Shown here: positions 18,029 through 48,311 of the stretch, piece after piece
Layout of the letters: the number at the start of each line of letters is the position of its first letter
Numbering within the stretch: position 1 is the stretch's first letter
Position numbers and translations under genes: made by a program
Sequence record: NC_070980.1
Length of the DNA: 64,000 nucleotides
Reading direction: 5' to 3' (one strand)
From: Escherichia phage vB_EcoP_SU7
Notes under the pieces: model-generated
The model's input: the letters and a program-made list of their open reading frames with translations, nothing else
What the model was told of the DNA's origin: nothing
Database searches by the model: none

Positions 18029-18328
18029 CTAGATTAAATCATAATACTTAATAATATCAGAGAGTTTGAACTCTCGAATGTCGTTCTTGTCGTTGTCCCA
18101 AGCGGTCATTATCCAACAAGGTTTGCCCCCATTATGATAACGGGAAGAAGCAACTGAGGTTCGTAAAGGAATAACGGAGCGGTCTGCAATCTCGCCTCTC
18201 CAATTACGATAGCTAAAGCGAAGAACTTGTTTCGTAGATACTTGATCATGTGTGTTTTCCTTATTCATAGATTCAAAGACTTCCTTCTCTTCAGGAGTCT
18301 CTAGATTTTTTAAATTCGCGTCTTGCAT
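18029..18328 (-). CDS. hypothetical protein
   Basis: ORF on the replication strand; start placed at the internal ATG (MQDANL…); start uncertain. Confidence 0.4.
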   Translation of the reverse strand: MQDANLKNLETPEEKEVFESMNKENTHDQVSTKQVLRFSYRNWRGEIADRSVIPLRTSVASSRYHNGGKPCWIMTAWDNDKNDIREFKLSDIIKYYDLI

Positions 18329-18695
18329 CGTTTTCCTCTTTAGTCTTAATCTTATGGCAAGACTCTTTACATAAGACTTGAAAACCATCTTTCTCAACTA
18401 AAGCCCTCTCGATGATTTCATCCCAAGTAGCTTCATGGTCCACTGGAACAATAGGCTCGATGTGGTCGACAGCCACCTCTTTCAGAGGAGAGTCATTACC
18501 GCACATGGCACACTTGTAGTGCATTGCCAGCTTGCCAGTCTTAGGGTTGATTTTACGTTCTGTCTGAGCTTCTTTGAGAGCATCAAACATAGGCTTCCAC
18601 TTTCTAGTCAGAGAACGAATCCCTGACTTAATGAAGGAGTTATAACGTGCTTCAGTCCACTGACCAGAGCATCTTGTCTTCTCAGCTTTCGCCAT
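18291..18695 (-). CDS. HNH endonuclease
   Basis: CAMCGND…VDHIEPIV…CH, an HNH zinc-finger nuclease motif. Confidence 0.55.
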   Translation of the reverse strand: MAKAEKTRCSGQWTEARYNSFIKSGIRSLTRKWKPMFDALKEAQTERKINPKTGKLAMHYKCAMCGNDSPLKEVAVDHIEPIVPVDHEATWDEIIERALVEKDGFQVLCKESCHKIKTKEENDARREFKKSRDS

Positions 18696-18873
18696 AACCT
18701 ACATCCATATCAGCGTCTTCCCAAATGCGTTTATTGACTCGGTGTGATTCTTTATCAGCACGAGGGATACGACCTGTGCGACGATCAAATGCTTGGTGCT
18801 TAATCTTTTGATCTTTACGAGATTCACGAGTAGAGGAGTTTTCATCATACGAACGATAGTCAAATTTACCCAT
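18682..18873 (-). CDS. small basic hypothetical protein
   Basis: 63-aa Arg/Lys-rich ORF tightly packed between neighbours. Confidence 0.35.
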   Translation of the reverse strand: MGKFDYRSYDENSSTRESRKDQKIKHQAFDRRTGRIPRADKESHRVNKRIWEDADMDVGYGES

Positions 18874-18886
18874 TATAATATCCTTA

Positions 18887-19705
18887 TTACCAAGTTTTAT
18901 CTAACCATGACCAATCAAAGAGGTCACCTTCAGCTTGTCCAACGAAGAGCAATCGAGCATTTTCTAACATCTTAGCTTCTGCTTCTTCCTCGAACCTTTT
19001 ATAGTATTCCATTCGTATAATATGATAAAGAGTCCACTTATCGAATACCTTCTCAATAAGTTTGATTGCAGCCTTACTACCAATGCCTTTACGACGCATT
19101 ACTAGATTGCCACCCCACATCATTTCAACCTTCTCACCACATCCGGGAATGTTATCTGTGCTATCCCCGATCAGCATTTGGTAGAAGAAGTTCTGCCATG
19201 CTACTTCCTCTGATACATAATGAGGGGGTACTTCTTTCTGTCTCTCCCCGCAAGCCCAACGGTAATGCCATCCGGGGGTGATTAACAAATCTTTATCACG
19301 GGTGCAAATGATAGTGTTCTTATCACGTCTCTGTCTTTCAGCTAAGGCATCATCTGCCTCTCTCCCAAAAACTTCTACGTATTCGTAATTCTCTTTAATG
19401 TAGTCACTAACATTTTGCCAGTGGTGAGGTCTTTCTCCCGGTGGTCGATTAGCTTTATAGCCTTGCTGCTTAGCAATATCAAACCGAAAATTACCACCTT
19501 CGCTGAAGTAAAAGATTGTTTTCTCGCAACCAGACCTTGCAATGATTACATCTATTTTATGTTGAAGTCGTTCAATCAAGAATCCATAATCAACTGGAAC
19601 ACGACCTGTGTCTAGAAAAGGATGCTCTTGTGTAAGAGCACCGACTTCATATCGCAGAACATCTCCGTCCACAATTGCTACTTCAGGATAGATTACATCA
19701 GACAT
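18887..19705 (-). CDS. 5'-3' exonuclease / flap endonuclease (FEN, T5 D15 / T4 RNase H family)
   Basis: H3TH motif LIGDSTDNIPGCGEK…KGIGSKAA; ATG at 19705 lies 2 nt after the upstream gene stop. Confidence 0.8.
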   Translation of the reverse strand: MSDVIYPEVAIVDGDVLRYEVGALTQEHPFLDTGRVPVDYGFLIERLQHKIDVIIARSGCEKTIFYFSEGGNFRFDIAKQQGYKANRPPGERPHHWQNVSDYIKENYEYVEVFGREADDALAERQRRDKNTIICTRDKDLLITPGWHYRWACGERQKEVPPHYVSEEVAWQNFFYQMLIGDSTDNIPGCGEKVEMMWGGNLVMRRKGIGSKAAIKLIEKVFDKWTLYHIIRMEYYKRFEEEAEAKMLENARLLFVGQAEGDLFDWSWLDKTW

Positions 19706-20294
19706 AGAGACCTCTCCGTGTCTCTTCAATAATCCACTCTAAATCCTCAACTGCCTCTTCTACAGAACGGTCATTAAAGAGGAGGTAGGTTGGTAGGTTT
19801 GTTCCTTCAATATAAGAACGGGAGTCCCCTTCAAAGGAGCAGCCATCGCGGAGAACCTGAACCACTCGAACATGGAAGTGTTTCTCTAGTTCTTCAACTT
19901 CTGCTTTAAAACCACCATCAGAGAAGACGATAACATCATTCTGTGATGGGATATGTTGTTGGATACTGCTAACAGCAAGTTTACCCATGCAGGTCTCACC
20001 AAACATAGGCTTCAGGTAATTCTCGCTAGTTGCAATCATCAAGTCTCGAACTGACTTACCGCCCCATTCAGGACGGACAAGTTCTTTCCACTCACGGTCG
20101 TTGTACAGCTCCATGAACTCGTAAAGAGGTAGACCTAATGCAGCAGCAGCCACTCGATACATAGGCTCCTTAAAAGCCCTTACATGCGGCCTAAACTCAG
20201 TGTTACCAGTGGTCTTCTCTAACCAAGCACTGGCGATTGTATCTTTACCGCAACCCGGAGGTCCATTTAGAATTACTACTAATGGTTTACTCAT
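19698..20294 (-). CDS. P-loop kinase, deoxynucleoside monophosphate kinase-like
   Basis: Walker A NGPPGCGKDT; size and layout resemble phage dNMP kinases (recalled, not searched). Confidence 0.45.
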   Translation of the reverse strand: MSKPLVVILNGPPGCGKDTIASAWLEKTTGNTEFRPHVRAFKEPMYRVAAAALGLPLYEFMELYNDREWKELVRPEWGGKSVRDLMIATSENYLKPMFGETCMGKLAVSSIQQHIPSQNDVIVFSDGGFKAEVEELEKHFHVRVVQVLRDGCSFEGDSRSYIEGTNLPTYLLFNDRSVEEAVEDLEWIIEETRRGLYV

Positions 20295-20944
20295 TATTGA
20301 ATCATCCCTTGAAGATCTTCTTTATCAAAGTGCTTCTCTACTACCGCTTCATACAGATCACGATTCTCCGAATAACGGCGATAGAAGGTTCCGTGTGAAA
20401 TTCCCAGCTCTTGCTGGATGTGATCATGAGGTATACCGAGGAAGAGCATTGAGAACATACTTGCCATCTTGCGGTTTTCCATAATATCACTTAGGTCCTG
20501 GAAGAAGAAAAAGATTCTAGATTCCAAGAATGGGTCTCCAGTAGAATCATGCTTATCCATAGCAATCTCTAAAGGACTTTCCCATGAATTCATCTCGGGA
20601 GGTCTAAACATATCAGCCTCTGGAATAGAATAGATACGTCTGTCTCCAACTGTCTGACGATTAGAACGAATCGACCAGATGATATTCTTCACACGATAAG
20701 TCATGTGTTCAATATCTTTTTCATCGGTAAGCAATAGTTCTTCTTGCTTTGCAAATACAAAACGCCAAGAGTTCAGTAACACTTCCTGAGCAACATCCTC
20801 TGCTTCGTGATAATCTTTAATGTCGTACATAAAATACTTATGCACAACTTTCCAATTCTCTCGATAGAATTCATCGAAGGTTGGGTAGTACTTAATAGGT
20901 ATGCCATGAATACGATAGCGTGTGGGTGTTGTCTTTTTCTTCAT
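20294..20944 (-). CDS. phage-encoded sigma factor-like protein
   Basis: Region 2-like [13 protein letters not shown] and region 4-like [15 protein letters not shown]. Confidence 0.5.
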
Positions 20945-20968
20945 AAGTCATCCTTAACTTACTTTACA

Positions 20969-21193
20969 TTAAACTACACAGAATAAATACATTGCTGTTT
21001 CAGGGGAAGGTATGTGGTCACTAGGATATCTAACCCTAATCCACTCATCATCTTCTGCTACATAATAAGCCCAATAAGACCCATTTTCATTAATAAAGAA
21101 CTTGAAGGTACAACCAAAGATTTGGTTATTGTGTTCCCATACTGCATGAAACTGAGTAACACCTTCTGGTATTGTAAGTTCCGCTCTGATCAT
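20969..21193 (-). CDS. hypothetical protein
   Basis: 74-aa ORF in operon context. Confidence 0.4.
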   Translation of the reverse strand: MIRAELTIPEGVTQFHAVWEHNNQIFGCTFKFFINENGSYWAYYVAEDDEWIRVRYPSDHIPSPETAMYLFCVV

Positions 21194-21456
21194 TGTATTC
21201 CTCTCTCCTTTAGAGCTTTAAGCAAACCGTTGTGGTTAGCGGCACAGGTTGTATAAGTGTCCTGATACCACTCGAGTGTTGTTGCAAGTGCTACTCCCTG
21301 TCCACTCTGAAGTAAAGGGAGGTCTACATCACATTCAGCTTTTAGGTTTGTTGGTAAGGGCATTAGCTGCCTGCTGTTGTCGCTCGTTGAACAAGCCATC
21401 AAACTAGAAGCGAGAAAAATCACCAAACAACTCTTTTGCTTTTTCTTTGTAAGCAT
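21190..21456 (-). CDS. lipoprotein, candidate outer-membrane spanin
   Basis: Signal peptide with lipobox LMAC; short mature part with Pro and Cys; lies downstream of the candidate inner-membrane spanin. Confidence 0.4.
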   Translation of the reverse strand: MLTKKKQKSCLVIFLASSLMACSTSDNSRQLMPLPTNLKAECDVDLPLLQSGQGVALATTLEWYQDTYTTCAANHNGLLKALKERGIQ

Positions 21457-21790
21457 TTTCTGCACCCTCTTGAGTGCTGTGATAACCAAGCCAAATTACT
21501 TTGTTTTGATATCCGATGCGAGCACTCCATTTGTTAATATCCGACCTGTACCCTACACCTTTTATTCCAGTTAAAGAGTTCTTTTGAACTATTTTGTTGG
21601 CATTATTAAGGACAGGTGTTGCTCTTCTTAGATTGCTCCAAGAATTATTAGATTTGTCTAAATCTTTATGGTCTATTTGAAAATCAGGAATCTCTCCAGT
21701 TTTGATATACCAAGCAATTCTATGAGCTTTGTACTGTTTATATTGATAGGTAATCACTGTATAGCCATCTGTGGCTTTACAACCTGCCAC
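21404..21790 (-). CDS. HNH homing endonuclease with AP2-like DNA-binding domain
   Basis: IDHKDLDKSNNSWSNLR (HNH) and GIKGVGYRSDINKWSARIGY…GYHSTQEGAENAY (AP2-like). Confidence 0.6.
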   Translation of the reverse strand: MAGCKATDGYTVITYQYKQYKAHRIAWYIKTGEIPDFQIDHKDLDKSNNSWSNLRRATPVLNNANKIVQKNSLTGIKGVGYRSDINKWSARIGYQNKVIWLGYHSTQEGAENAYKEKAKELFGDFSRF

Positions 21791-21885
21791 CTTTCCAGCG
21801 AATCTTGAATTCCACTGAGCGCTCTTATCCTCAGAATGTTTCCAGTAGAGAAGACCAGAAACCTCATCGTAAGATAGATATTTAA

Positions 21886-22227
21886 CTAATTCTTTAATTT
21901 CAGTGCCTCCGCTGCTTGTTGCTGTCGTTCATTGAAAAGTCCTACATACTCATCACTAGCACACACATTGTAAAAAACTGGCTTAGTCTTTTCATAATGC
22001 ATCTCTTTGTAAATAGTTTCCGTGTTCTTCTTCCAGTTAGATAAACCAGTCAGAACTTTCTGAGCCACTTCATCAGCAGCCTTAGCTCTCTCAACCTCAA
22101 TCTCTTGCTGTTTCTTCTCATGGTCAAGAGCATTACTATTACTTCTGTATTGCTCAAACTTGACACCACCAAAGAAAATAATAGCTGTGAAAATAAGAAA
22201 GCCTATATTGTTTTGAAGCTTTTCCAT
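21886..22227 (-). CDS. type II membrane coiled-coil protein, candidate inner-membrane spanin
   Basis: N-terminal TM (IGFLIFTAIIFFGGV) then charged coiled coil; ATG at 22227. Confidence 0.4.
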   Translation of the reverse strand: MEKLQNNIGFLIFTAIIFFGGVKFEQYRSNSNALDHEKKQQEIEVERAKAADEVAQKVLTGLSNWKKNTETIYKEMHYEKTKPVFYNVCASDEYVGLFNERQQQAAEALKLKN

Positions 22228-22240
22228 TTTAACTCCAACG

Positions 22241-22264
22241 AAAAAAGCCACCCGAAGGTGGCTA
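22241..22264 (-). terminator. rho-independent terminator (minus strand)
   Basis: GCCACC-CGAA-GGTGGC stem with U-run on the minus-strand transcript, after the 22287 gene end. Confidence 0.5.
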
Positions 22265-22286
22265 AGCTATTACAAGGAGAGATTCA

Positions 22287-23027
22287 TTAGAAAGGGCTGT
22301 CATCTTCTTCAAAGGTAGACTGCGGCTCTTCGTTAATAGTAGGGATACTTGGAGTAGCATCTTTCTGTTCAATATCAGAAGCTTTAGTAACTTCACGACC
22401 AGCCAGAGGGATGTTCTTAGCATCATTAGCTTGGGTCAGAAGATTACGTTGGAATGGGAAGATTGCTTGATAAGCAGCCAAGTTAGCATCAGTCTCAGCA
22501 TATGGTTCGAAGAAGATCAACTCACTACGAGGGGCACCTACAGAATCACGATATTTGGTAGGGATTGGAGTGATACTCTTAATGGAGTTTTTCTTCTCAC
22601 CAGCTTTGTTTACATAGGAATTAACCAGAATGTTAACAGGCTGACCTAGCAGCATATCTTTAAACCAACCCAAATCACCTTTCAGTGCTTGAACACTTGG
22701 GTCGATCATTTTGATCAGATTCAGAATACCAGAGTTCTTAGCTCGTGGGTTTACGTCGAAAGTTTTAAACTGGCAAGCAGGACGAGGGTCCAGAGGTTTG
22801 CCTTCATTATCAGTCCCTGTTGCATCCACGCCAATCAGTTCAAAAGCCAAGTCCATACGGAAAGCTGGGTTCTTAGGAGTAACTGCTTTAGTCTTAGGGT
22901 CAATCCAAGGGTCACGATTGTGAACACCTAAACCTACAACACGAACAATACGTGCTTCGTACTCACCATCAGGGATTACATCGTAGTTGGATTTACGGGA
23001 TACAGACAGTTCAGGGATCATAGACAT
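22287..23027 (-). CDS. putative single-stranded DNA-binding protein
   Basis: 246 aa ending in an acidic tail …TFEEDDSPF, as in SSB and T7 gp2.5 C-termini; first gene after a 415-bp intergenic region. Confidence 0.35.
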   Translation of the reverse strand: MSMIPELSVSRKSNYDVIPDGEYEARIVRVVGLGVHNRDPWIDPKTKAVTPKNPAFRMDLAFELIGVDATGTDNEGKPLDPRPACQFKTFDVNPRAKNSGILNLIKMIDPSVQALKGDLGWFKDMLLGQPVNILVNSYVNKAGEKKNSIKSITPIPTKYRDSVGAPRSELIFFEPYAETDANLAAYQAIFPFQRNLLTQANDAKNIPLAGREVTKASDIEQKDATPSIPTINEEPQSTFEEDDSPF

Positions 23028-23083
23028 ATTAATATTTCCTTATATAAATTTAAGATTGTTGCTCTCTTTGAGCGGTTTGTATA

Positions 23084-23096
23084 CTATATACATTAC
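23084..23096 (-). promoter_or_regulatory. candidate promoter motif GTAATGTATATAG (minus strand)
   Basis: About 57 nt upstream of the 23027 start; same core as 13310. Confidence 0.35.
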
Positions 23097-23156
23097 ACTT
23101 ATACAGATAAGGTTCTATTATACTATAACCTTTTTGGTAGTAGATAATGACAAGTA

Positions 23157-23171
23157 GTAATGTATATATGG
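23157..23171 (+). promoter_or_regulatory. second copy of the TAATGTATATA motif, opposite orientation
   Basis: GTAATGTATATATGG on the plus strand inside the 23028-23442 intergenic region. Confidence 0.25.
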
Positions 23172-23442
23172 TATAGCTAGTAAAGCTATTGCAGGCTTGT
23201 ATATTGGGCAATCATTGTAACCCTTGCAAGTACCGAAGGGCAGGAGACACCTGCGAGATAAAAATAGAGAATTAAGGAAATCCTTGATTTAGGTTGTAGG
23301 GACTCCTAGGGACTTTGATTCTCTATTTAAAAGAATATTAATTACTTACTACCTAAATAATTAACTAACTTACTTAAACCAAACTCAAGAATAATAGATA
23401 AAAAGATTATTCCTAAGAAAGCTAAAAAGTAAAGGATATAAG

Positions 23443-23607
23443 TTACCATTCAAGTAAACCTTTAAAGTTAGTTTGTTCTACTATCCTCTGATAACGAAGA
23501 TTAGAATCAGCTTGTTTCTTTAACATCTCATTATATTTATCTCTGATAGGGTCTTTATAAACTACAGGTTCTTTAAATAACGAGATCTTGTTCTTTTCTT
23601 CTTTCAT
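23443..23607 (-). CDS. small hypothetical protein
   Basis: ORF 23443-23691 trimmed to an internal ATG to reduce overlap with the phosphatase gene; start uncertain. Confidence 0.35.
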   Translation of the reverse strand: MKEEKNKISLFKEPVVYKDPIRDKYNEMLKKQADSNLRYQRIVEQTNFKGLLEW

Positions 23608-24076
23608 CGAAAACCTTCCTAATCTCTTGCAGAGAAACAGCTTTATAATTAATTTGCTCCATTGATGTACAGAAATATCTCCAATCATCAATTACATGAT
23701 TATGGGTATGAGCATAAATATTAAACTTCCCTCTCATTTCATCAGTGTGAATAGGAATATGAGTTACCCAAAACTCTTTATATTTATAATCACCAGAGAT
23801 TCTACGGAAGACTTTCATCATATCAGGGAGAAGTTCTAACCTGTCATGGTTTCCTAAGACTAGATGCTTCTCTCCTTTTACTTCAGCGATGATATCAAGG
23901 GCATACTTTTCAAACACCCAATCACCGGTAAAGAAAGTTTTATCACGTTTAGTAACATGGTCAAACGCTGCTAAGATAGCTTTGTCGTGTTCTTCAATAC
24001 TACTAAACCTCTTCCTAAAGCTACAGATGTTACGATGGCCTAGGTGACCATCACCTGCAAAATAAACTTCAGCCAT
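23573..24076 (-). CDS. calcineurin-like metallophosphoesterase (Ser/Thr phosphatase-like)
   Basis: GDGHLGH…GDWV…GNHD…HTHNH metallophosphatase motifs. Confidence 0.7.
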   Translation of the reverse strand: MAEVYFAGDGHLGHRNICSFRKRFSSIEEHDKAILAAFDHVTKRDKTFFTGDWVFEKYALDIIAEVKGEKHLVLGNHDRLELLPDMMKVFRRISGDYKYKEFWVTHIPIHTDEMRGKFNIYAHTHNHVIDDWRYFCTSMEQINYKAVSLQEIRKVFDERRKEQDLVI

Positions 24077-24219
24077 TCTCGTATGTGTCCTCATAATATG
24101 AGTAGTTGAAGGATTCAGCTTTCGTTTCAGCCTCCTCCATATCGTCTGTTTCCAGAATCACTCTCCAGCCAGAACCGTTAGGATATTCAGCTCCCTCATC
24201 TAGCCAGACTTTGTATCGT

Positions 24220-24423
24220 TTAGATTGTGCAACCATCGCAGATGTAATCTCCGCTTAGAGACTCTTGCAAGAGCCGGGATTGTTCATCTGATACCAACTT
24301 GTCAACCTCTTCTTTCAGAGCCATAAGATCAACAAAGGTTAGTAGCTCGTGTCGGTCAGCAATCACTTGGTATTTGTAGTCATTAATATGTGGTGCGCTT
24401 TGTACGACGTAAATATTAGACAT
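24220..24423 (-). CDS. small hypothetical protein
   Basis: 67-aa ORF, stop-start coupled. Confidence 0.4.
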   Translation of the reverse strand: MSNIYVVQSAPHINDYKYQVIADRHELLTFVDLMALKEEVDKLVSDEQSRLLQESLSGDYICDGCTI

Positions 24424-24647
24424 TATAAGATCTCCCTTTGTTTAGCGTTAATGACTGACATTGCTGTGATTGGGTTGTTTGTTCCAAGATATTCCAGAAC
24501 AGGGACACCCTTAGTCGGTTTATCAGCCTCTGTGTAATTCTTAACCTTGCCACCAAGAACCGCTAGAGAAGCCTGAGCTTCCGCTTCATCATAGTGAATT
24601 CGGTCAACTGTTTTCTTTCCAATCCTATAAGTGTGAACGTAAATCAT
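24423..24647 (-). CDS. small hypothetical protein
   Basis: 74-aa ORF, coupled to neighbours. Confidence 0.4.
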   Translation of the reverse strand: MIYVHTYRIGKKTVDRIHYDEAEAQASLAVLGGKVKNYTEADKPTKGVPVLEYLGTNNPITAMSVINAKQREIL

Positions 24648-24850
24648 TTAACTTCCTCAATATCAACTAATTCAAAACTTCCTATTTCTTCAAGCTTAAT
24701 AATCTCTTTAACCTTCTCAACAGCTTTAATAGGGTTTTCTTCTTCTACAACTTTACACCCTGATACTTCAAGACTGCCTGTTCCACGAAGGTATAAATTC
24801 AACTTATAAACTACTTTGTAGTATTTCATCGTGCTCCCAATTTCTTTCAT
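24644..24850 (-). CDS. small hypothetical protein
   Basis: 68-aa ORF. Confidence 0.4.
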   Translation of the reverse strand: MKEIGSTMKYYKVVYKLNLYLRGTGSLEVSGCKVVEEENPIKAVEKVKEIIKLEEIGSFELVDIEEVK

Positions 24851-25019
24851 AATATCCAGAGTTGTAGTTTAGGGCGCATTTCTCGGCCTCTTCTATGTCG
24901 TCTGTGTTTAGGATATTAACCCAACCACCAACTTCATCAAAACCCTCTTCTACCTCATTGAACCACACGCTGTATTTCTTCATCTTGATAAGACCCTTCC
25001 CCAATCCTTGATGTAACAT
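24804..25019 (-). CDS. small acidic hypothetical protein
   Basis: 71-aa ORF. Confidence 0.35.
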   Translation of the reverse strand: MLHQGLGKGLIKMKKYSVWFNEVEEGFDEVGGWVNILNTDDIEEAEKCALNYNSGYYERNWEHDEILQSSL

Positions 25020-25155
25020 CGACCATCAACCCACTTGGTCTCTGATTTAAACTCTTGAGAGATTCTTGTTTCACAGTCTTCTTTACTGTAATCACCAAGA
25101 GCATCCATCACCCAAAGAAACAGAGCAATTACAATAGACCAGATTAGAAACTTCT

Positions 25156-25548
25156 TCATCGTATCACCAGAGGCTCTTCAGAGTACACAGGAGAGGTTAT
25201 TTCTACCGGAGGTGCTGCTCTAAGGTCATTAAGCCTTACGCCCTTCAGCATACCATCTAGGTGGTCCATTTTAGGGATACCTACAGGGAAGTCATCAATC
25301 CAAACATCCACAAAGAAACCCAAGCTCTGAGTGACGGAATCCTTCTGAACACCATTGCAAAAGATAACAGGAATATCTAGACTTGCTGCATCTGCTAGAA
25401 GCTCCTCATTTGAATACCCATTAGGTTGAGCAAAACGATAGGTGACAATACGTACATCATGTCCACGAGATTTCATAAGACCTACAATGTGGGTCCACAT
25501 CTCTTTGTCCACTGTAAAAGTGTCATCATAATCTAAACCAATATTCAT
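25156..25548 (-). CDS. HAD-superfamily phosphatase-like protein
   Basis: N-terminal IGLDYDDTFT resembles HAD motif I (DxDxT). Confidence 0.4.
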   Translation of the reverse strand: MNIGLDYDDTFTVDKEMWTHIVGLMKSRGHDVRIVTYRFAQPNGYSNEELLADAASLDIPVIFCNGVQKDSVTQSLGFFVDVWIDDFPVGIPKMDHLDGMLKGVRLNDLRAAPPVEITSPVYSEEPLVIR

Positions 25549-25565
25549 ATTAGCCTCTTAGACAA

Positions 25566-25590
25566 GAAAAGCCACCCGAAGGTAGCTTAT
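25566..25590 (-). terminator. rho-independent terminator (minus strand)
   Basis: Hairpin plus U-run on the minus transcript right after the 25587 gene end. Confidence 0.45.
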
Positions 25591-25832
25591 TTATTCTGTG
25601 TTTCCAGTTCGCTGATACGAACTTTCAAACCGTTAATCTCAGCCTGAGCAGCTTCTAGTTTAATTAGAGCTTCTTCAGCGTCAGCTTCTGTTTGAAGAAC
25701 CGCAGTGGTTAGTTCGTATAAAGCTTGGCGGAGAGAATCTTTTCCCATAGCATGAATCTGTGCAACAAAGAATTGCTTACCTTCCGTGGTTTCCAAAGTC
25801 TCTTTTAATTCTTTAGATGTTAAAGTCATCAT
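25587..25832 (-). CDS. small coiled-coil protein
   Basis: 81 aa, heptad-like (…LEAAQAEINGLKVRISELETQNK). Confidence 0.45.
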   Translation of the reverse strand: MMTLTSKELKETLETTEGKQFFVAQIHAMGKDSLRQALYELTTAVLQTEADAEEALIKLEAAQAEINGLKVRISELETQNK

Positions 25833-40988: not shown

Positions 40989-41054
40989 TATATTACCTTT
41001 TAGTGTTTCAGTTAAATTCGAACTAGCCTCCTCTTTCGAAGAGGCTAAAGCAAA

Positions 41055-41240
41055 TTATTCTACTTCGAAGTGTTTGATCACACCAGTCAGTACATCAGAT
41101 TGGAATGTACCCACTAGCTCTGTACCTCGGAAGAAGTTGACATTTGTTCCAAGTGATTCAAAGCGATCTGCTTGAATGTCCAGAGATTGAATATTTCCTT
41201 CTGCTGACATTGTACGAAACATGATTGTGTATTTATTCAC
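41055..41240 (-). CDS. small hypothetical protein
   Basis: 61-aa ORF. Confidence 0.35.
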   Translation of the reverse strand: MNKYTIMFRTMSAEGNIQSLDIQADRFESLGTNVNFFRGTELVGTFQSDVLTGVIKHFEVE

Positions 41241-41479
41241 AGACTTGTTACTCCCTTATCTGCTTGTGCAATTGCGATGATACGCTCAGCACATTCCATT
41301 GAATATTTATCACCTCGTTTGAGGAAGGTGATGATTGCAGAGAACTGATTACCAATCATTCTCTTATTTGTGATACCGAACTCTTCACAGAGTTGGTTGA
41401 TAGCTTTACGAGAGCCTACAATAAGAGGCTCTTTTTCTTCGGTCATTCCACGGCTGATCAAATCTTCGATAGACAACAT
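41237..41479 (-). CDS. small hypothetical protein
   Basis: 80-aa ORF coupled to neighbours. Confidence 0.4.
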   Translation of the reverse strand: MLSIEDLISRGMTEEKEPLIVGSRKAINQLCEEFGITNKRMIGNQFSAIITFLKRGDKYSMECAERIIAIAQADKGVTSL

Positions 41480-41505
41480 TACAAATTCCTTTTTGTTTAA
41501 TTTAA

Positions 41506-42741
41506 TTACAGAGTTACTGCTACTTCGCTACCTTCAACATTGACAGACTCTAACTTGCGAGGGTTATGAATCTGGACTGGATTGACCGGAACGTTCCAAC
41601 CACTGCGGTAGAAGTTACGACCATCACAGAACAGGATGACATTGGCAGACATTGCATTCGGTTGCAGGTTGTTGTGGACATGACGGATATTTGCAATCCA
41701 GTAGCCACGAGACAAAGTGTAGCCAGTAGGTGCATTACGAATAGTTTGAGTATTCATCTGACCTTCCAGTTGCATTTCTTCAGGAACCACATCAACTGAA
41801 TCAATCGGCTGTGCTACTTGTCCTTCCAGTGCAAAGTTTTCATCATCAGCACTTTCACTGTCAGCAACCAATTCACCGTCCCCGTCTTCAATCGGAGTCT
41901 GGTAAACCACTTTATACTGAGGGGTATAGAGAGGGTTCTGAGCTTTAACAAACTCAAGAATGTTGTGACGATAAGTATCCAGAGTCGTACCAGTCAGTCC
42001 CGGTGCTGTGTTAACTTCCAGTACCCATGCTTCTTGACCTTTGGTGATAATATCAACTGCACCGAAATCCAGACCCATTGATTCAACAGCTTTCACCGCA
42101 TTGATCAGAGAGGCATCATTCGGAGCATCTGTGAAGGAGCTTGAGTAAACCCAGCCAGTGTGGTGATTACGAATATCTTCACGATAGTTAGGGTCTTCGC
42201 GATAACCATTGCGACGAATCTTCTTCTGAACATAGGTGATTACACCTTTGAACACATGGACACGCCATTCACGACGTGGGCCTTGAATACCTTTAGTGTA
42301 CAGCTCAGCCTGATCAACTGTAGTGTTAGGCTCTACAACAACAATACCTGAACCAGAGTGACCAGTCAGCTCGTGACGCTCATACACAATGTTGCCAGCG
42401 TTTGACCACTCCTGAGCAGTCTCTTGAACATCTGTGTATTCCACAGTTTTAACACCTGCTTGGTCCATCACACTGAAAGCACGACGTTTGTTCGCTGCCA
42501 TATGTAAGGCTGCGGTACGGTTAAGGACGGTTGCAGAACCAAAGAATGATTCAGGATAGCGACGGTTCCCGTAGTTAACAACCACATCATCTTCACGAGA
42601 ACGCCAGCGGCTATTCTCTGAAAGAAGCCCCATCACGTTAGCATTGATGCGTTCATCACGGATAGTATCACTGATAGCAGATACCAGAGCGTTAACAGAA
42701 TCAGACGGGCCATACGGAAGAACACGGATACGAGTAGTCAT
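41506..42741 (-). CDS. ATP-grasp ligase
   Basis: AWVLEVNTAPGLTG is the ATP-grasp Mg-ATP E-x-N motif; 411 aa. Confidence 0.65.
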   Translation of the reverse strand: MTTRIRVLPYGPSDSVNALVSAISDTIRDERINANVMGLLSENSRWRSREDDVVVNYGNRRYPESFFGSATVLNRTAALHMAANKRRAFSVMDQAGVKTVEYTDVQETAQEWSNAGNIVYERHELTGHSGSGIVVVEPNTTVDQAELYTKGIQGPRREWRVHVFKGVITYVQKKIRRNGYREDPNYREDIRNHHTGWVYSSSFTDAPNDASLINAVKAVESMGLDFGAVDIITKGQEAWVLEVNTAPGLTGTTLDTYRHNILEFVKAQNPLYTPQYKVVYQTPIEDGDGELVADSESADDENFALEGQVAQPIDSVDVVPEEMQLEGQMNTQTIRNAPTGYTLSRGYWIANIRHVHNNLQPNAMSANVILFCDGRNFYRSGWNVPVNPVQIHNPRKLESVNVEGSEVAVTL

Positions 42742-42743
42742 TT

Positions 42744-42974
42744 TTAGATACCTTTTAGTTTAAGAATTTCGTTACGACAGGATTGAATTTTAGCTTCGAT
42801 TGCCCAATACTCAGCGAACATTTCGTCTTCTTGGGCATCGCTTGGAGAGTCGATTAAGTTAAAAGCAAACGGATACAGCTTTCGCTGCTCCGTTACCAGT
42901 TGTTGAAGTCGGAGTTGTTGATACTCCAGCATTGTCAGGTGAGGCTTAGCTCCCTTGCTTGACATGAGGCTCAA
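42744..42974 (-). CDS. small hypothetical protein
   Basis: 76-aa ORF directly downstream of the ATP-grasp gene. Confidence 0.4.
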   Translation of the reverse strand: MSLMSSKGAKPHLTMLEYQQLRLQQLVTEQRKLYPFAFNLIDSPSDAQEDEMFAEYWAIEAKIQSCRNEILKLKGI

Positions 42975-43179
42975 CTTTAATCCCCTTCATTTTAACATAG
43001 TCAGCCAACACGTTGTTGATAACGGTTGGAAAAGGGATTTCTACTGGAGAATCAACCAGCTTCCCAATACCTTCTTGCATCCACTTCTGAATTGCTCGGA
43101 GGTTATCACATCCTGTGCTTGTCATCGGAATACGGCGGGTAGTTACCACGTTATCCAACATCAGTTTACGAACTTCCAT
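42946..43179 (-). CDS. small hypothetical protein
   Basis: 77-aa ORF. Confidence 0.4.
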   Translation of the reverse strand: MEVRKLMLDNVVTTRRIPMTSTGCDNLRAIQKWMQEGIGKLVDSPVEIPFPTVINNVLADYVKMKGIKVEPHVKQGS

Positions 43180-43190
43180 AACTATACCTC

Positions 43191-45224
43191 TTAGTGTTTA
43201 CCTTTACAGTAATCTGAATTACAGATCACCCTGTTTTCTTTGTTCAGTGAGCAAGTTTCTGCATCACGCCACGGAATTTGTTTATAACAGACTGCACAAA
43301 ACCCAATTGAAGTCCAGAGGGCTTTTGTGAACTCGGCTGTTCGTTGTCCATCATAGCTGACAACTGTTTTTCGGAGAGAGGTTGACTTTTTTGGAAATGT
43401 CTCCGCTTTCTCAGCGGGTACCTCCTTTGGGGAATTCTTTGGACCATAAACAGAGATGGCATAAGTATCACCACCACGTTTTTCCAAATACGAATTAGGA
43501 ACATCTGCAAGTGTAATATCCCCTGAACGTTTTGCTGAGCTAACCATTACGATCATACGGCTAAGCATACGTTCATCAACACGAACAGCTACTTCAGGAC
43601 GACGTGGGTTGGTTGTGTCTACTGCTTTAGTCCAAATATAACCCTCAGATAGAGTAACATTCTTTACTTTATCTTTGATTTCTTTGGAGCAGATATAACA
43701 AACATCTTCACCACGAAGTTTACTCATTTCGTTGTCAAACTCGAAATCAGTCTTGACTTCACCACAGACAGCACATACGCCCAAAGGCACATCTTCTTCA
43801 TCTTCAGAGATTTTAGATAACGCTTCGAAGCATTCTGGATGCCAGTATGCTTGATAAGCAAACACAGCCTTACGAGCATCTTTCCAGTCAATGTGCTTAT
43901 CACAACCACCACAATCACCATGAGAGTGAGATTCCCAGAACTTACGAGTGACTTCTACACCATTTTTAGTGATGAAGGAGTCCTCTGCATCAAAAGGGAT
44001 GTCATCATCAAAATCAGCAGTAGTGCTTTGAGGCTCCTTATCTGTAGCATCAACAAACAGCCCTGAAGTTAGTACGAGGCGAATCATACTGTCCACTTCG
44101 GAGATACAAGCAATCGTCCCGCGATATACTACCTTTGGGTTTTCAAGAGCCTTAAGATATTCATCTTTGGCTACGTTGTGAACATCCCCTTCGACATACT
44201 CTTGGGCTTTATCGTCGTAGATGTAACCAATCATCTTACCACGATCTGTGTTGTTATAAGCATGGAACTCGTGAGGAATAATATCCACACGACCATCACG
44301 ACGATAAGGAAGACCACGATCGGCAGCCAGTTTGTTCTGGTCTTCAATCGCTTTACGACGACGAATGTCTCCGCTTGTCACGCCGGGCTTGTCGTCTTTG
44401 TTTCCGTAAATGTCGCTTGTGCTGCTGCTTGATTTGTTTGTCTGTTGGTTCTGATATAGAGAGGAGTTCGAGTAATAGCCGCCCCAGCGACTCGTTATCG
44501 TAAAAACCGGAAGCTTGTGCTCCACCTCTTGAACCAGAGTCATACGACTGTTAGACACATCAAAGATATACTCAGTTCCCACTTTACATTCGAAGTGGTC
44601 ATTGATACGGTTCTTGTGGGATTTAGAACGCTCTAAAATCCACATAAGCATAGCTTCTTCAGAAGCCCCAAACCAATCTAAACCACAACGGGCTAGGTGG
44701 AAAGGACGCTCATCATTACGGATAATGTGAAGCGTGTTGTCTTTAGCATCATGCCAAATCAAAGTGAATGCACCATCCAGTTTTTGGATAGTCTCTGCTG
44801 CTCCAATGGTATTAATTGAGTGGCAGATGTTTTCACTATCAACTTCGAAACGCTTACTGTCAGGAAGGAGATCTTGATCTAACAGGGTTCCATTATGAAC
44901 CAGAGTAATATCCCCGTGAGTAAATGGGTGAGCATTTCGAGCATTGACAGCCCCACGAGTGGCATGTCGGCTGTGACCAACAATCCACGAAGGAGGAACT
45001 ACGTAGTTCGTAAGCCCTTTGGTAATATTTGTATATTCTGTCTGGAGCATAAAAGCATAAGAAGGAAGAGCTTCTTTATAAGAGAAGACTTGCTTTTCAC
45101 CTTTACGCTGACCAAACACACCAGTTGAGTGCTGTCCACGGAAAACACCAGCATACAGAAGTTGGTTGAAAATATCCAAATCTGTTGAGGTCATGTTGCC
45201 GCCAGCTAATACGATACCACAAAT
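43191..45224 (-). CDS. class II glutamine amidotransferase-like (Ntn hydrolase) protein with C-terminal Cys-rich zinc-binding region
   Basis: In-frame CGIVLAGG sits just 5' of the track ATG and is preceded by AGGTGG plus an ATT codon 8 nt downstream; GVFRGQHSTG; C-terminal CxxC clusters. Confidence 0.5.
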   Translation of the reverse strand: MCGIVLAGGNMTSTDLDIFNQLLYAGVFRGQHSTGVFGQRKGEKQVFSYKEALPSYAFMLQTEYTNITKGLTNYVVPPSWIVGHSRHATRGAVNARNAHPFTHGDITLVHNGTLLDQDLLPDSKRFEVDSENICHSINTIGAAETIQKLDGAFTLIWHDAKDNTLHIIRNDERPFHLARCGLDWFGASEEAMLMWILERSKSHKNRINDHFECKVGTEYIFDVSNSRMTLVQEVEHKLPVFTITSRWGGYYSNSSLYQNQQTNKSSSSTSDIYGNKDDKPGVTSGDIRRRKAIEDQNKLAADRGLPYRRDGRVDIIPHEFHAYNNTDRGKMIGYIYDDKAQEYVEGDVHNVAKDEYLKALENPKVVYRGTIACISEVDSMIRLVLTSGLFVDATDKEPQSTTADFDDDIPFDAEDSFITKNGVEVTRKFWESHSHGDCGGCDKHIDWKDARKAVFAYQAYWHPECFEALSKISEDEEDVPLGVCAVCGEVKTDFEFDNEMSKLRGEDVCYICSKEIKDKVKNVTLSEGYIWTKAVDTTNPRRPEVAVRVDERMLSRMIVMVSSAKRSGDITLADVPNSYLEKRGGDTYAISVYGPKNSPKEVPAEKAETFPKKSTSLRKTVVSYDGQRTAEFTKALWTSIGFCAVCYKQIPWRDAETCSLNKENRVICNSDYCKGKH

Positions 45225-45301
45225 TTTCTAATCCACCTGAAGGGTAAACCCTTTCATCTAATTAACCTTTAAATGCGCCCTTTATCAGAGCGCCCATTGT
45301 G

Positions 45302-46402
45302 TTACAGCAGTCGTTCTAATTGCATTTCCAGATGGTCTGGAATGTAATCAGTGATGTTATTATCACTGCTACCTGATTCACGCATCAGAGCAAACATGTG
45401 ACGAATTTCACGAACCGTTGCGATTCGAGTGCTTTCAATCTGAGGGGTGTAGTAGGTCATGATCTCTTCATAGACAGTGTTGGCATTACCGCGCACATAT
45501 CCCAAGAAACCATAGAAGTCATTCATATCACGTAAGTTGATAAGGACTTCACCATCAGGGCCAGTCTGTTGCACACGAACACGACCAACCAAAGTTACAG
45601 ATTGCTCACGACAGAACAGAATATCACGAGCAAGACGATACCCTTCAGTGAGATCACTGTCTCTTGGAGTATAGTCTAGGGGTAGATGTTGAATCATAGG
45701 AGCGAAGCGCAGCTCATTCAACTTCTCAACATAAGCTTCATTGTCTAAATCTGCATATTCAACAGCCAGTTTCTTGAGAACCAAGAAGCGGTTGACCAGA
45801 TTCAGAAGTTGGCTCTTTTTCCACTTCGGCTCTGAGATACGGAACTCAACAGAACCAAATTGAGATAGAGGCAAAAGATTAAGGGAGGTATATTTATCCC
45901 AGCTATTAACAAGAGAGTGGAAGAAAGCTTCCCCGTCTCGGTTGAACGCTGACGAAGCATTCATAACTTGTGCTTGAACGACAGCAAAAGCTGGACAGAA
46001 GTTGCTACGATAGCGATGGTATCCAGAACATTTGAACATCATCTTTTCATAGAACGTCCATCCAAGAATAACTTTCTTAAGGATATTACTATCAGCGTCA
46101 CGCATATCCATATGAACGTGAGTGGAACAGCGCCAAGTTCCCTCGGCTCCAGAATCCTGTACTGCTTCACTCAGATTGTTAATAGCACGAAGTAATTCTT
46201 CACCGTTGTAAGGTCGTGCACATACTAATTCACAACCATCACGAAGAGAGCCATCTTCAGTACAAACCCACATATCAGCGTCAATGTTAGTTGTACCTTC
46301 GACTTCTAACTCAATACCAACACCACACTGAAAAGCAATACTTGGATGCGGTTCAGATAAGCGAGGGTTACGGTATCCAAAAACTTGTGCTACGGTTGTC
46401 AT
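45302..46402 (-). CDS. glutamine-synthetase-like amidoligase (putative carboxylate-amine ligase)
   Basis: GIELEVEG and STHVHMD metal-binding-type motifs; sits next to GATase II-like and AIG2-like genes. Confidence 0.4.
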   Translation of the reverse strand: MTTVAQVFGYRNPRLSEPHPSIAFQCGVGIELEVEGTTNIDADMWVCTEDGSLRDGCELVCARPYNGEELLRAINNLSEAVQDSGAEGTWRCSTHVHMDMRDADSNILKKVILGWTFYEKMMFKCSGYHRYRSNFCPAFAVVQAQVMNASSAFNRDGEAFFHSLVNSWDKYTSLNLLPLSQFGSVEFRISEPKWKKSQLLNLVNRFLVLKKLAVEYADLDNEAYVEKLNELRFAPMIQHLPLDYTPRDSDLTEGYRLARDILFCREQSVTLVGRVRVQQTGPDGEVLINLRDMNDFYGFLGYVRGNANTVYEEIMTYYTPQIESTRIATVREIRHMFALMRESGSSDNNITDYIPDHLEMQLERLL

Positions 46403-47025
46403 AATGATTCCACCAACTCTACATTATATGATGACAGGTCTGAAGAAATATGCTTGAACTTCTCCAGAAGGTTTAAAGATTGACGACCATTGTCGCCATA
46501 ACCAGCTTCAAGAAGCACGTTTCCAACGTAAGCTCCTTTGTAATAAACTTTTCCATCGACAGGATTGATATAGATGAAACGAGTAACCAACCCTTCAAAC
46601 TCTGGATTAAACAGGTTGTACACCAAATCACCCGGAATCGAACGTCCGAGAGAAGGTGGAGTACCACGAAGTTTATTCCCCATCAATCCTTTAGCTCGCT
46701 GACGAACAGGGTTGATATGGGTCCAGCTCACCATGTTATTACCATGCTGAAGGTATCCTACATCTGGAGACTCCAGAATGAGGCTGTGATCAAACACTGG
46801 GATATTACTAACAATCTGACGCTCAAACTGACCTTCGGAGTTTTTAGTCCAGCGTTCCGCCTCAAACACTAAAGACATTTCAGCGTCGTGTGAGTAGTCG
46901 TCGATATCAAAGTTACCTTGCTGACGAACATCAAGCACATATAGAGGGAGGTTTTTACCATCAGGTGATCGCTGAGCAATCCATGTTCCACAATAATAGT
47001 GTTGAAAATCTCTTAACAAGCTCAC
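46399..47025 (-). CDS. hypothetical protein (cluster member)
   Basis: 208-aa ORF, stop-start overlap with the amidoligase. Confidence 0.5.
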   Translation of the reverse strand: MSLLRDFQHYYCGTWIAQRSPDGKNLPLYVLDVRQQGNFDIDDYSHDAEMSLVFEAERWTKNSEGQFERQIVSNIPVFDHSLILESPDVGYLQHGNNMVSWTHINPVRQRAKGLMGNKLRGTPPSLGRSIPGDLVYNLFNPEFEGLVTRFIYINPVDGKVYYKGAYVGNVLLEAGYGDNGRQSLNLLEKFKHISSDLSSYNVELVESL

Positions 47026-47034
47026 AATATCACC

Positions 47035-47844
47035 TTATACAATCTGGAGTTTAGAGGAGAATTTATCCGCTTCTTTAACATCGTTACTGTTGATGATGTT
47101 GTGAAGCTTTTCAATTGGAAGGCGAGAGTGAAGTGACATCAATACTTCCATATCACAGCCTTGAACAACCTTATCAACTTGCTCATAAACAAACTTGCGG
47201 GTTGACTTCTCGCCAATCCAGAAGTTAGAAAGAGAACGATATTCAATACCGTAATCTTTGTAGCGAATGGCAGAAGCCTTTCCGTATAACTCTTTACGAC
47301 GAGTATCTTTATCCATGATCACAGCTGGCAAGGACAGGAAGTAATCACACAACACACCTAACATCATTTGAGTCTGACGACTAATTTCCAGCGTACCAGT
47401 GACGCCAAGGTGAACATGACCACCAGCAGTACGCAGACCTTTGTCTGTCGCTACTGGAGATGGGTTTTTCTGACCAGTGAAGGCGTTGAAATCAGGAGTA
47501 CAACCAAATACAAAGGCTGACGGATGGAAAGATTCCATCTCTTCTGAAGTGAACACATGAGAGCTAATCCCAAGTGCTGCCTCCATGCCACGTTCATTGA
47601 GAACTTTGTTAGTCAGATCAATACCACGCTGAATGTTATCATTAAACGCTTCAAACCCTTTCTGTGGGTTAATATCGAACTCGGCCAGAACGTTGTCTTC
47701 TTGAAGACGAACATCAGGGGCCAGATCAATTTTGTTGTCTTTAGAGCAGCCCAGCTTACCAGCCACAGAGGTGATAATACCAGAAGCAGTACGAACAAAC
47801 ATTTCCGGATCCGACCCTATTAAGAATTTACGTTTAGTAGTCAT
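47035..47844 (-). CDS. hypothetical protein, possibly a second carboxylate-amine ligase-like enzyme
   Basis: IGSDPEMFV and GGHVHLG motifs; assignment weak. Confidence 0.3.
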   Translation of the reverse strand: MTTKRKFLIGSDPEMFVRTASGIITSVAGKLGCSKDNKIDLAPDVRLQEDNVLAEFDINPQKGFEAFNDNIQRGIDLTNKVLNERGMEAALGISSHVFTSEEMESFHPSAFVFGCTPDFNAFTGQKNPSPVATDKGLRTAGGHVHLGVTGTLEISRQTQMMLGVLCDYFLSLPAVIMDKDTRRKELYGKASAIRYKDYGIEYRSLSNFWIGEKSTRKFVYEQVDKVVQGCDMEVLMSLHSRLPIEKLHNIINSNDVKEADKFSSKLQIV

Positions 47845-48311
47845 GCTTTAGTCCAACCTTTATGAGATAGATAGTTTTTAAATCTGCCACTGTGCACAGC
47901 GCCCATGTGGCCTTGATGTAAGTCGTTGCTTCTACAGAAGTCTTTAAGATTGTATATTGTTACAACCTCGCCATCTGGAGATCTAAACTTCCAAAATCTA
48001 GCATTCCCTTTCACAGCGTTTTCTTCACTGGTCAGAAGTTGGAAATTACTTGGGTGGTTATTAAGTTTATCGCCATCGATGTGATCAACAGTCATACCAT
48101 CCGGAATAGGCCCAATAAACAATTCATACATAAGTCTATGTAATAAAAAGTTCCTTGTTATCTTTTCAGGAGCCTGAACTGTTGTAAACTTAAGATAACC
48201 ATCTTTATCAGGAAACAGTTTCCTCTGTTTCCCTGTTCTTGCATGGAATATACTACCGTCTTCGAACACCAAGAAGGTAGCAACTCCGACTACTAACTCC
48301 CTAAATTCCAT
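47841..48311 (-). CDS. HNH homing endonuclease
   Basis: VDHIDGDKLNNHPSNFQLLTSEENAVKG. Confidence 0.6.
   Translation of the reverse strand: MEFRELVVGVATFLVFEDGSIFHARTGKQRKLFPDKDGYLKFTTVQAPEKITRNFLLHRLMYELFIGPIPDGMTVDHIDGDKLNNHPSNFQLLTSEENAVKGNARFWKFRSPDGEVVTIYNLKDFCRSNDLHQGHMGAVHSGRFKNYLSHKGWTKA

Follow-up and report, generated by a model that had tools for sequence, protein, structure and literature searches.

One conserved and five probably mobile HNH endonuclease genes in a 30-kb region of Escherichia phage vB_EcoP_SU7

Six open reading frames (ORFs) for HNH endonucleases lie within 30 kb of the genome of Escherichia phage vB_EcoP_SU7 (NC_070980.1), which raises the question of whether all of them are selfish homing genes. 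We addressed this question in a 64,000-nucleotide (nt) stretch of that genome, referred to below as the window; coordinates are window positions and carry the prefix w, and the genes are called HNH1 to HNH6 in their order along it. An initial annotation had taken all six for homing endonucleases, several at classic homing sites, that bring about gene conversion between co-infecting relatives. Our comparison favors this reading for five genes (HNH2 to HNH6) and speaks against it for HNH1. We consider it likely that the region holds one fixed core HNH gene and five mobile homing elements, namely an intron that carries HNH3 and four free-standing cassettes that carry HNH2, HNH4, HNH5 and HNH6.

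By its sequence the window is that of a Kuravirus, a phiEco32-like podophage of E. coli. A megablast search with w18000-42000 found 98 phage records, nearly all of them Escherichia phages of Kuravirus (phiEco32-like, Gordonclarkvirinae), and the closest, at 94-97% identity, were PAS59, HC-25922, 101114UKE3 and Bas86/87. Plus-strand genes extend to about w17800, and from w18000 on all genes lie on the minus strand. HNH genes in this group have been noticed before: phage YF01 was reported to have four HNH domains (PMC9965538), and the BASEL collection paper mentions homing-endonuclease insertions in Gordonclarkvirinae in passing (PMC11990801). An IMG/VR search with the polymerase yielded just five Kuravirus loci, and the phage GenBank collection was used for the comparisons; presence and absence were counted by site-specific searches of that collection, which covers about 100 Kuravirus-like records.

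These searches found HNH2 to HNH6 each in only four to seven distinct phages, and HNH1 in essentially all, so that the polymorphism expected of homing genes is seen at five of the six sites. Specifically, HNH2 is carried by six phages, the HNH3 intron by seven, HNH5 by six and HNH6 by four, and HNH4 turns up in six members of the phiEco32-like clade, where its identity is 96%, with a more diverged copy (76%) in Bas86. The sharpest comparison is with HC-25922, which in a table of identity along the genome in 300-nt steps is 99-100% identical to the window over w22200-30000 and w37800-50000 and lacks all five mobile HNH elements. Within those stretches the intron and HNH6 are clean insertions between flanks of 99-100% identity. 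Besides the window, none of the genomes examined has all five elements.

The same table shows that the window is a mosaic. Between w30216 and about w32400 lies a block with HNH4, phoH and small ORFs that matches the phiEco32-like clade at 93-98% identity and the window's usual close relatives at only 70-80%, whereas that clade is otherwise only about 82% identical to the window. HNH4 forms the left edge of this block, which probably derives from the phiEco32-like clade, and the block edges coincide with HNH genes. The next block, w32400-33700 with thyX and HNH5, is 87-90% identical to PAS59 and Bas86. Discordance between cassette and backbone is less clear for HNH2 and HNH5. Nuclease genes at recombination boundaries have also been described in ICP1 phages (PMC10448857).

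All six ORFs exist as first listed, all on the minus strand, and a jackhmmer scan over every six-frame ORF of the window recovered those six and no further HNH gene. Four of them exceed the gathering cut-off of Pfam HNH_3 (PF13392; 24.8 bits), namely HNH2 (51.8), HNH3 (46.7), HNH5 (43.5) and HNH6 (62.5). HNH1 and HNH4 are not members of HNH_3; against Pfam HNH (PF01844; cut-off 21.4 bits) HNH4 reaches a marginal 21.9 bits from its ATG and 19.3 in the extended form described below, and HNH1 scores 16.2 bits and has no Pfam family above cut-off. Both retain the pattern CxxC...DH...CxxCH and are weakly similar to each other (E = 1e-4) as HNH proteins of the zinc-finger type. PHROG HNH endonuclease families are matched by all six genes (E = 2e-37 to 4e-23). 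Furthermore, all six are under purifying selection when compared with diverged alleles, with dN/dS of 0.10-0.16 (HNH1, 0.11-0.13; HNH3, 0.10) or, where dS is saturated, pN far below pS (HNH2, 0.21 vs 0.80; HNH4, 0.23 vs 0.86). The fusion to an AP2 domain proposed for HNH2 and HNH5 is only partly borne out: HNH2 matches Pfam AP2 (PF00847) at 28.7 bits (E = 1.7e-6) but below the threshold of 33.3, and HNH5 has no Pfam AP2 match, but the two proteins align end to end, including the C-terminal region (34% identity, E = 2e-20), and the HNH5 C-terminus is homologous to the AP2-like region of HNH2. "AP2-like" is a fair description of both C-termini on sequence grounds, short of formal membership of the family.

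The high density of HNH genes remarked on at the outset is real. The window, with six, ties for the maximum among homologous segments of about 40 kb from seven relatives, which hold six (PAS59), five (Bas86), four (TH34), three (PE006) and one each (NC-B, EcK-vB and HC-25922). Further sites, empty in the window, are occupied by HNH_3-type genes in relatives, some of them immediately on either side of HNH1; such loci were seen in PAS59 (L001:12011-12529 and 13391-13903), TH34 (L036:9673-10125 and 19441-20028) and phiEco32 (L008:19563-19916). Over the whole phage family, at least nine sites of HNH insertion can be counted within the 40-kb region.

HNH1 (w18291-18695, minus strand; phrog_3106, E = 2e-37) stands apart from the other five. 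All 12 of the Kuravirus loci compared have it in the same place, with distant relatives at 61% identity in a local tblastn search, and 97 phage records, set against the 98 relatives found, contain a copy at 60% amino-acid identity or more. Its identity values split, as the backbone does, into two clades, at 95-98% and 79-82%, and no empty HNH1 site was seen among the relatives. HNH1 lies at the end of a minus-strand early/middle operon, with exonuclease, dNMP kinase and sigma-factor genes as neighbors. The order exonuclease (w18887-19729), small ORF, HNH1 has a parallel in two other phage groups: in both Klebsiella phage Asterion and a Zobellviridae phage, a 47%-identical homolog follows an exonuclease gene at a distance of one to three small genes. 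A PDB sequence search with HNH1 gave no match. Such a gene, present and syntenic in essentially all relatives, has the distribution that had been named beforehand as pointing to a role other than homing, and we conclude from the comparison that HNH1 is a conserved, non-mobile member of an exonuclease/replication/recombination module.

HNH proteins of the HK97 gp74 type are reportedly found in phage DNA-packaging machines, in work attributed to Kala and colleagues in 2014, and HNH1 resembles that type in being a small, conserved, non-mobile phage HNH protein. A packaging role of this kind is not supported for HNH1, which has no terminase gene as a neighbor and belongs to an early/middle operon on the opposite strand. 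Several GenBank records, including OQ921332, MZ234017 and KP308307, label HNH1 as a terminase small subunit. In YF01 the counterpart of HNH1 is gp25 and the terminase subunits are gp3 and the adjoining gene, and the authors of that analysis doubted the label because the terminase genes are far off (PMC9965538). Overlapping the 3' end of HNH1, w18029-18397 on the minus strand encodes a protein of about 99 amino acids (aa) with a WYL domain (26.7 bits, cut-off 21.8). WYL domains are usually ligand-sensing regulators, and one is unexpected in the replication module of a lytic phage.

HNH3 (w26796-27191, minus strand; 131 aa, with a GGAG Shine-Dalgarno sequence) had been described as intron-borne, and we found it inside a 607-nt group I intron (w26677-27283, minus strand) of the family A DNA polymerase gene (DNA_pol_A, E = 5e-14). 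Exon 1 spans w27284-28975 and exon 2, with 50 codons and the stop codon, w26524-26676, both on the minus strand. The alignment with intron-less relatives breaks off at w26676 and picks up again at w27284, their own sequence being ungapped, and the insert is thus exactly 607 nt. An indel near w26150 spoiled an ungapped mismatch count on the left flank, and the right flank and the 300-nt table were used instead. Excision in silico joins ...VIDMH|DEGQF... and restores a polymerase that is colinear with the uninterrupted 614-aa enzyme of HC-25922 and has the same length. The junction, CAT|GAT, falls between the His and Asp of polymerase motif C, where T7-like phages carry the PhiI/W31 introns (Pol I position 881; PMC3428280).

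The predicted RNA has the elements of a group I ribozyme. In P1 the exon sequence ACAUGCAU pairs with GUGCAUGU, the last exon base, U, being paired with G at the 5' splice site, and the intron ends in the terminal G (...CUGAAUG|GAUGAA). In P10 the intron sequence UUCAUU, directly 5' of the guide sequence, pairs with GAUGAA of exon 2. In Rfam's E-value mode, Intron_gpI (RF00028) gives two partial matches, of 26.3 and 14.3 bits, one on each side of the ORF, whose alignment displays P4-P6 and the P7/P8/P9 core including GAUAUAGUC; the P7 helix is GACUAU/AUAGUC. A helix-by-helix table of ten introns shows compensatory changes in P1, P10, P3, P8 and P9, tabulated by hand without shuffle statistics, since a MAFFT alignment of the ORF-less introns misplaced P3'/P8 between the Kuravirus and T7-like copies. 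The P1 pair at position -6 is A-U here and G-C in the T7-like copies, and P10 changes from UUCAUU/GAUGAA to CUCAUU/GAUGAG in WX2 and 13a, tracking the synonymous Glu codon GAA/GAG in exon 2. P3, P8 and P9 each occur in two or three distinct, fully paired versions across the ten introns. P5 and P7.2 are only loosely defined, and we make no claim for a P6 pairing (GCU/AGU to GCC/GGC), which does not hold in Vp_R1.

This intron is one of a family already described. In blastn, exactly the intron (query bases 146-762) is 66-68% identical in nucleotide sequence to polymerase introns of T7-like phages, carried by 13a, Bas102-104, JeanTinguely and Yersinia and Klebsiella Studiervirinae, and a related copy is found in Vibrio phage Vp_R1. 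Being common to T7-like and Vibrio phages, the intron has a horizontal history. The record of phage 13a annotates its polymerase gene, gp5, as spliced. HNH3 itself has 62-63% amino-acid identity, at an equal length of 131 aa, to the intron endonucleases of 13a, Bas102, VSG32 and WX2. From this evidence the HNH3 intron is a homolog of the known T7-like polymerase intron: it agrees with PhiI/W31 in insertion point, in homology from boundary to boundary, in the 131-aa ORF in the same loop and in the P3/P4/P7/P9 layout. The PhiI/W31 intron resides in Autographiviridae, whereas the present copy resides in a Kuravirus (Gordonclarkvirinae), has P1 and P10 retuned to the Kuravirus exons, has a 9-nt P5 extension and differs in P7.2 and P8. 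I-HmuI, I-HmuII and I-BasI are nicking enzymes of the HNH_3 type. Like HNH3, these proteins of the Bacillus phages SPO1, SP82 and Bastille are HNH endonucleases of group I introns that interrupt conserved sequence of a family A polymerase gene (PMC3428280), but their introns occupy another insertion site in phages of Gram-positive hosts, and our blastn search detected no nucleotide similarity between them and the window intron.

We propose that the RNA, with the HNH3 ORF in its P6 loop, would self-splice under the guidance of the internal sequence UUCAUU|GUGCAUGU, which would pair with both exons, and that HNH3 would nick or cut the intron-less polymerase genes of co-infecting relatives, repair then copying the intron in. 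The polymerase site answers well to the description as a classic homing site; the thyX, spanin and ligase junctions fit it only loosely.

Other polymorphisms affect the same gene and its surroundings. A second, different group I intron of about 780 nt interrupts the polymerase gene of the 76,184-bp Kuravirus IMGVR_UViG_2700988942 at ...FIYAFN|YGAGD, in the motif B region (L013:11232-12011); it has the core elements GAGACUAUCC...GAUAUAGUCCGA, and its endonuclease ORF looks frameshifted. Another locus (L011) has an insertion of about 700 nt in the polymerase. Just downstream of the polymerase, a 103-aa ORF (w26213-26524, minus strand), whose start overlaps the polymerase stop codon, has no family match and is common only to HC-25922 and ECBP2; PAS59, NC-B and Bas86 hold about 195 nt of other sequence there, a replacement polymorphism.

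The free-standing cassettes are inserted differently, as is clearest for HNH6 (w47841-48311, minus strand). This gene entered a COOH.NH2-ligase gene after codon 10, and the ligase is nevertheless a complete ORF (w47035-47844, minus strand; phrog_3815, E = 1e-112, profile positions 2-265 of 268). In alleles without HNH6 the ligase start reads ATGACTAAGCGTGCTTTCCTTATTGGTTCT|GACCCTGAAATG. In the window the native ATG and the nine codons that follow it remain upstream as a stub, now a 16-codon ORF (w48293-48343, minus strand) that overlaps the HNH6 start codon, which lies 2 nt past the ten native codons. The first 13 or so codons of the present ligase gene (w47806-47844) are a recoded copy brought by the cassette: the new start codon, which overlaps the HNH6 stop codon (GCATGACT), opens the recoded copy ATGACTACTAAACGTAAATTCTTAATAGGGTCGGATCCGGAAATG. 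HNH6 has no Shine-Dalgarno sequence, and its start lies inside the stub ORF. Near HNH6 the sole differences from HC-25922 are mismatches three bases apart in the 13 recoded codons (w47806-47833).

The recoded ligase start is also present in Bas86 and PE006, and in the four HNH6 carriers the stub matches each phage's own backbone and the recoded copy travels with the cassette. Over 534 nt the cassette has a single mismatch to that of Bas86 (99.8% identity), whereas the adjacent ligase gene is about 91% identical; to PE006 the cassette is 87-94% identical and the backbone 68-77%. HC-25922 cannot have arisen from the window by simple deletion, because a deletion between stub and recoded copy would leave GGTTCT|GATCCG and the observed sequence is GGTTCT|GACCCT. 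The difference between the two genomes must therefore stem from recombination between phages.

A comparable arrangement is seen where HNH2 (w21404-21898, minus strand, from its probable start) has entered the spanin genes. The insertion spans approximately w21397-21910, and its target is the overlap of the Rz and Rz1 genes. Both remain intact: the Rz-like i-spanin is a complete ORF (w21886-22227, minus strand; phrog_1152, E = 1.5e-32, profile positions 6-122 of 127), and the Rz1 o-spanin (w21190-21456, minus strand; phrog_2425, E = 1.7e-23) has a new lipoprotein signal peptide, MLTKKKQKSCLVIFLASSLMAC. At its 5' end the cassette brings a recoded version of the last 19 or so Rz codons (w21886-21942), so that Rz ends in ...EYVGLFNERQQQAAEALKLKN here and in ...EYVSLFNERQQQAVSALTNKPKN in the allele without HNH2. 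An alternative frame within the 3' end of HNH2 codes for the new signal peptide and leads in frame into mature Rz1. Fragments of the old gene ends persist, namely a piece of the native Rz1 signal peptide that is ended by a TAG codon (w21942-21995) and a remnant of the native Rz 3' end (w21335-21397). The E20-1 cassette, only 74% identical, has the same three features, with VHIKKKLLSCTGILLAFSLSAC as the equivalent peptide.

HNH2 had been listed as w21404-21790. The ORF stands, but its start is likely to be an ATT at w21898 and not the GTG at w21790. The frame is open for 36 codons upstream of that GTG without an ATG, GTG or TTG; this extension aligns with the HNH5 N-terminus and has 24 of 36 residues identical to E20-1, with 16 synonymous codon changes. 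The proposed start follows GGAGG and 7 nt as ATT in the window, PAS59 and Bas86, and GAGGG and 7 nt as ATC in E20-1. A precedent for the site exists in the T5-like phages Shivani and phiR201, where a GIY-YIG homing gene lies between the spanin genes and the lipoylation signal is regenerated (Kongari et al. 2018, PMC6139136). The outcome is the same in both cases: the change to the i-spanin is confined to the extreme C-terminus, and that to the o-spanin to the lipoylation signal (PMC6139136). The HNH2 site differs in that the nuclease is of the HNH_3 and not the GIY-YIG type, the phage family is another one, the signal peptide is overprinted in the 3' end of the nuclease gene and fragments of the old gene ends are retained.

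HNH5 (w33199-33690, minus strand) has captured the ribosome-binding site and start codon that natively belong to thyX (TAAGGAAGTTCACGGATGAATGA); the captured start is ATGAATGA. The thyX gene (w32577-33224, minus strand; Thy1, E = 5e-43) restarts inside the 3' end of HNH5 at AAGGAG and ATG, a ribosome-binding site and start codon supplied by the cassette, and has a divergent N-terminus. It is only 71% identical in nucleotide sequence to that of otherwise close relatives without HNH5. ECBP2 and TH34 have a different HNH gene, about 40% identical, at the same thyX site and in the same layout.

HNH4 lies in a 596-nt cassette (w30216-30811, minus strand) between phoH and a 105-aa gene, in place of the 64-78-nt spacer of empty alleles. 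The cassette also holds a 55-aa ORF (w30632-30799) that has no family match and is unique to the window. As with HNH2, the listed ORF exists and its start probably lies further upstream. From ATG the gene spans w30233-30562, but an intact zinc ribbon (CxxC...CxxxC) is encoded further upstream in the open frame, which reaches an ATA at w30622 that follows GGGGG/GGAGG in three alleles, and the Bas86 homolog has ATG at the position of the ATA; HNH4 thus probably starts at AUA and spans w30233-30622.

The site downstream of phoH is a hotspot. In ES17 the HNH4 copy is preceded by another HNH_3-like ORF in tandem (L048:1630-2580), and phiEco32 (L008:8046-8477) and PE006 have two unrelated small ORFs instead (430 nt). 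In the record of 1-6af (L047) the HNH4 homolog is not annotated. The motif TAATGTATA occurs in three exact copies in the window, against 0.6 expected, at w13310-13318 (plus), w23087-23095 (minus) and w23158-23166 (plus), two of them at 40-60 nt before a gene start; it also occurs (TAATGTATACTCC) in the spacer of the relatives' empty HNH4 sites, and that copy is deleted in the window. The HNH4 cassette may have displaced a phage promoter, the copies of the motif being too few to build on.

Taken together, HNH4 is intergenic, whereas the insertion points of HNH2, HNH5 and HNH6 lie within the ends of conserved genes, and each of these three cassettes brings a recoded replacement for the gene end that it displaces. 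As the replacement end is carried along, the host gene stays a continuous ORF without splicing. Insertion would also destroy the original cleavage site, and a carrier genome would then be immune to its own enzyme. AUH codons initiate weakly in E. coli, and weak translation signals probably hold the nucleases at a low level: the putative AUU/AUC start of HNH2, the putative AUA start of HNH4 and, for HNH6, the lack of a Shine-Dalgarno sequence together with a start inside the stub ORF. We suggest tentatively, giving the idea slightly less than even weight, that the free-standing cassettes are intron-free gene-end replacement modules, which carry a recoded terminus, colonize the coding sequence of needed genes, even of an overlapping pair, immunize the carrier and are throttled by AUU, AUC or AUA starts.

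Could HNH1 be selfish after all? Membership of all six genes in HNH families, the weak similarity of HNH1 to HNH4 and the insertion of other HNH genes beside HNH1 in TH34, phiEco32 and PAS59 would fit, but a gene that is syntenic in essentially all of about 98 relatives, diverges with the backbone, has no empty site and has 47%-identical homologs near an exonuclease gene in two other phage groups is very unlikely to be a homing element. A different proposal is that the variable HNH genes are kept for the benefit of the phage, through damage to competitors or marker exclusion, and that their patchiness reflects differential loss. This agrees with the strong purifying selection on all of them, with the neat fit of the cassettes into host gene expression and with a report of an intron endonuclease that mediates competition between co-infecting phages (PMC11620839). 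However, HC-25922, NC-B and EcK-vB are viable with HNH1 only on a near-identical backbone, and clean insertions together with the discordant identity of cassettes and flanks point to horizontal gain; we regard the proposal as unlikely, noting that benefit to the phage and homing are not mutually exclusive. That HNH2 and HNH4 in particular are decaying relics that are no longer expressed is suggested by the lack of a canonical start upstream of their conserved N-terminal domains and by the unannotated copy in 1-6af. We judge this improbable, as neither gene contains a frameshift or an internal stop, pN is far below pS in both, the HNH2 extension keeps 24 of 36 residues across 16 synonymous codon changes and the arrangement of Shine-Dalgarno sequence and AUH codon is conserved across alleles.

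Several observations weigh against homing by the five elements. Patterns of presence and absence cannot by themselves separate gain from loss. Homing is read from the sequence, and cleavage, splicing and co-infection are all predictions. The conserved N-termini of HNH2 and HNH4 without a canonical start codon allow poor expression or inactivity, and the recoded gene ends could be divergent donor sequence inherited in a co-conversion tract and not an adaptation. At gathering thresholds Rfam finds no intron in the window (26.3 bits against a threshold of 50), its sole RNA gene there being a tRNA-Arg(TCT) at w54424-54499 (minus strand; 73 bits); this shortfall is expected for ORF-bearing introns, because the 396-nt ORF splits the ribozyme core and the model. 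Finally, the annotators of Bas86 (PQ850622) and Bas89 (PQ850613) in GenBank joined the coding sequences of the Rz-like spanin and the COOH.NH2 ligase across the HNH genes, as if the HNH2 and HNH6 cassettes were introns spliced from these mRNAs, and remains of the native genes, the Rz 3' remnant and the ligase 5' end, are indeed found beside the cassettes. We find this most improbable. Both host genes are complete, continuous ORFs that match full-length profiles unjoined, HNH6 leaves no room for a ribozyme, with 2 nt between stub and start and its stop codon overlapping the ligase start, and the recoded duplicates and the new signal peptide, which are conserved in diverged alleles, would be pointless if spliced out. 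Rfam detected no intron-like RNA at the HNH2, HNH4, HNH5 and HNH6 sites even at E <= 1, and with full-length host ORFs an intron was rejected for all four; the joins in Bas86 and Bas89 are therefore probably unnecessary.

The reading with one core gene and five homing elements builds on known systems. Free-standing phage homing genes are textbook material (PMC2988022), and the intron family and the spanin precedent of the T5-like phages are likewise known. The seg and mob genes of T4 and its relatives resemble the cassettes in being free-standing and polymorphic, in adjoining conserved genes of replication and nucleotide metabolism, in overlapping or coupled translation and in the co-conversion of flanks (PMC2988022). 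They are described as intergenic, and those of T4 are of the GIY-YIG as well as the HNH type, whereas three of the four cassettes here lie within coding sequence and all are HNH genes. We found no description of the replacement gene ends, the overprinted signal peptide or the possible non-AUG starts, which extend known behavior.

Some consequences are practical. HNH1 should not be labelled a terminase small subunit, the joined genes of Bas86 and Bas89 can probably be left unjoined, and homologs of HNH2 and HNH4 appear too short in the records. Several of the proteins are putative site-specific nickases or cutters whose targets can be read from the empty alleles, and this phage and HC-25922 are a ready pair for measuring homing. 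For the phages themselves, two genomes that are 99-100% identical across much of a region and five elements apart provide a natural example of how homing endonucleases probably reshape a lytic phage genome, and the edges of its mosaic blocks coincide with the homing elements. Replacement of a gene end, together with an overprinted signal peptide, would render a selfish insertion harmless without an intron or intein, for which the T5-like phages offer a precedent. If general, gene-end replacement may be an overlooked route by which homing genes invade phage genomes, one that is mis-annotated as spliced genes or truncated ORFs.

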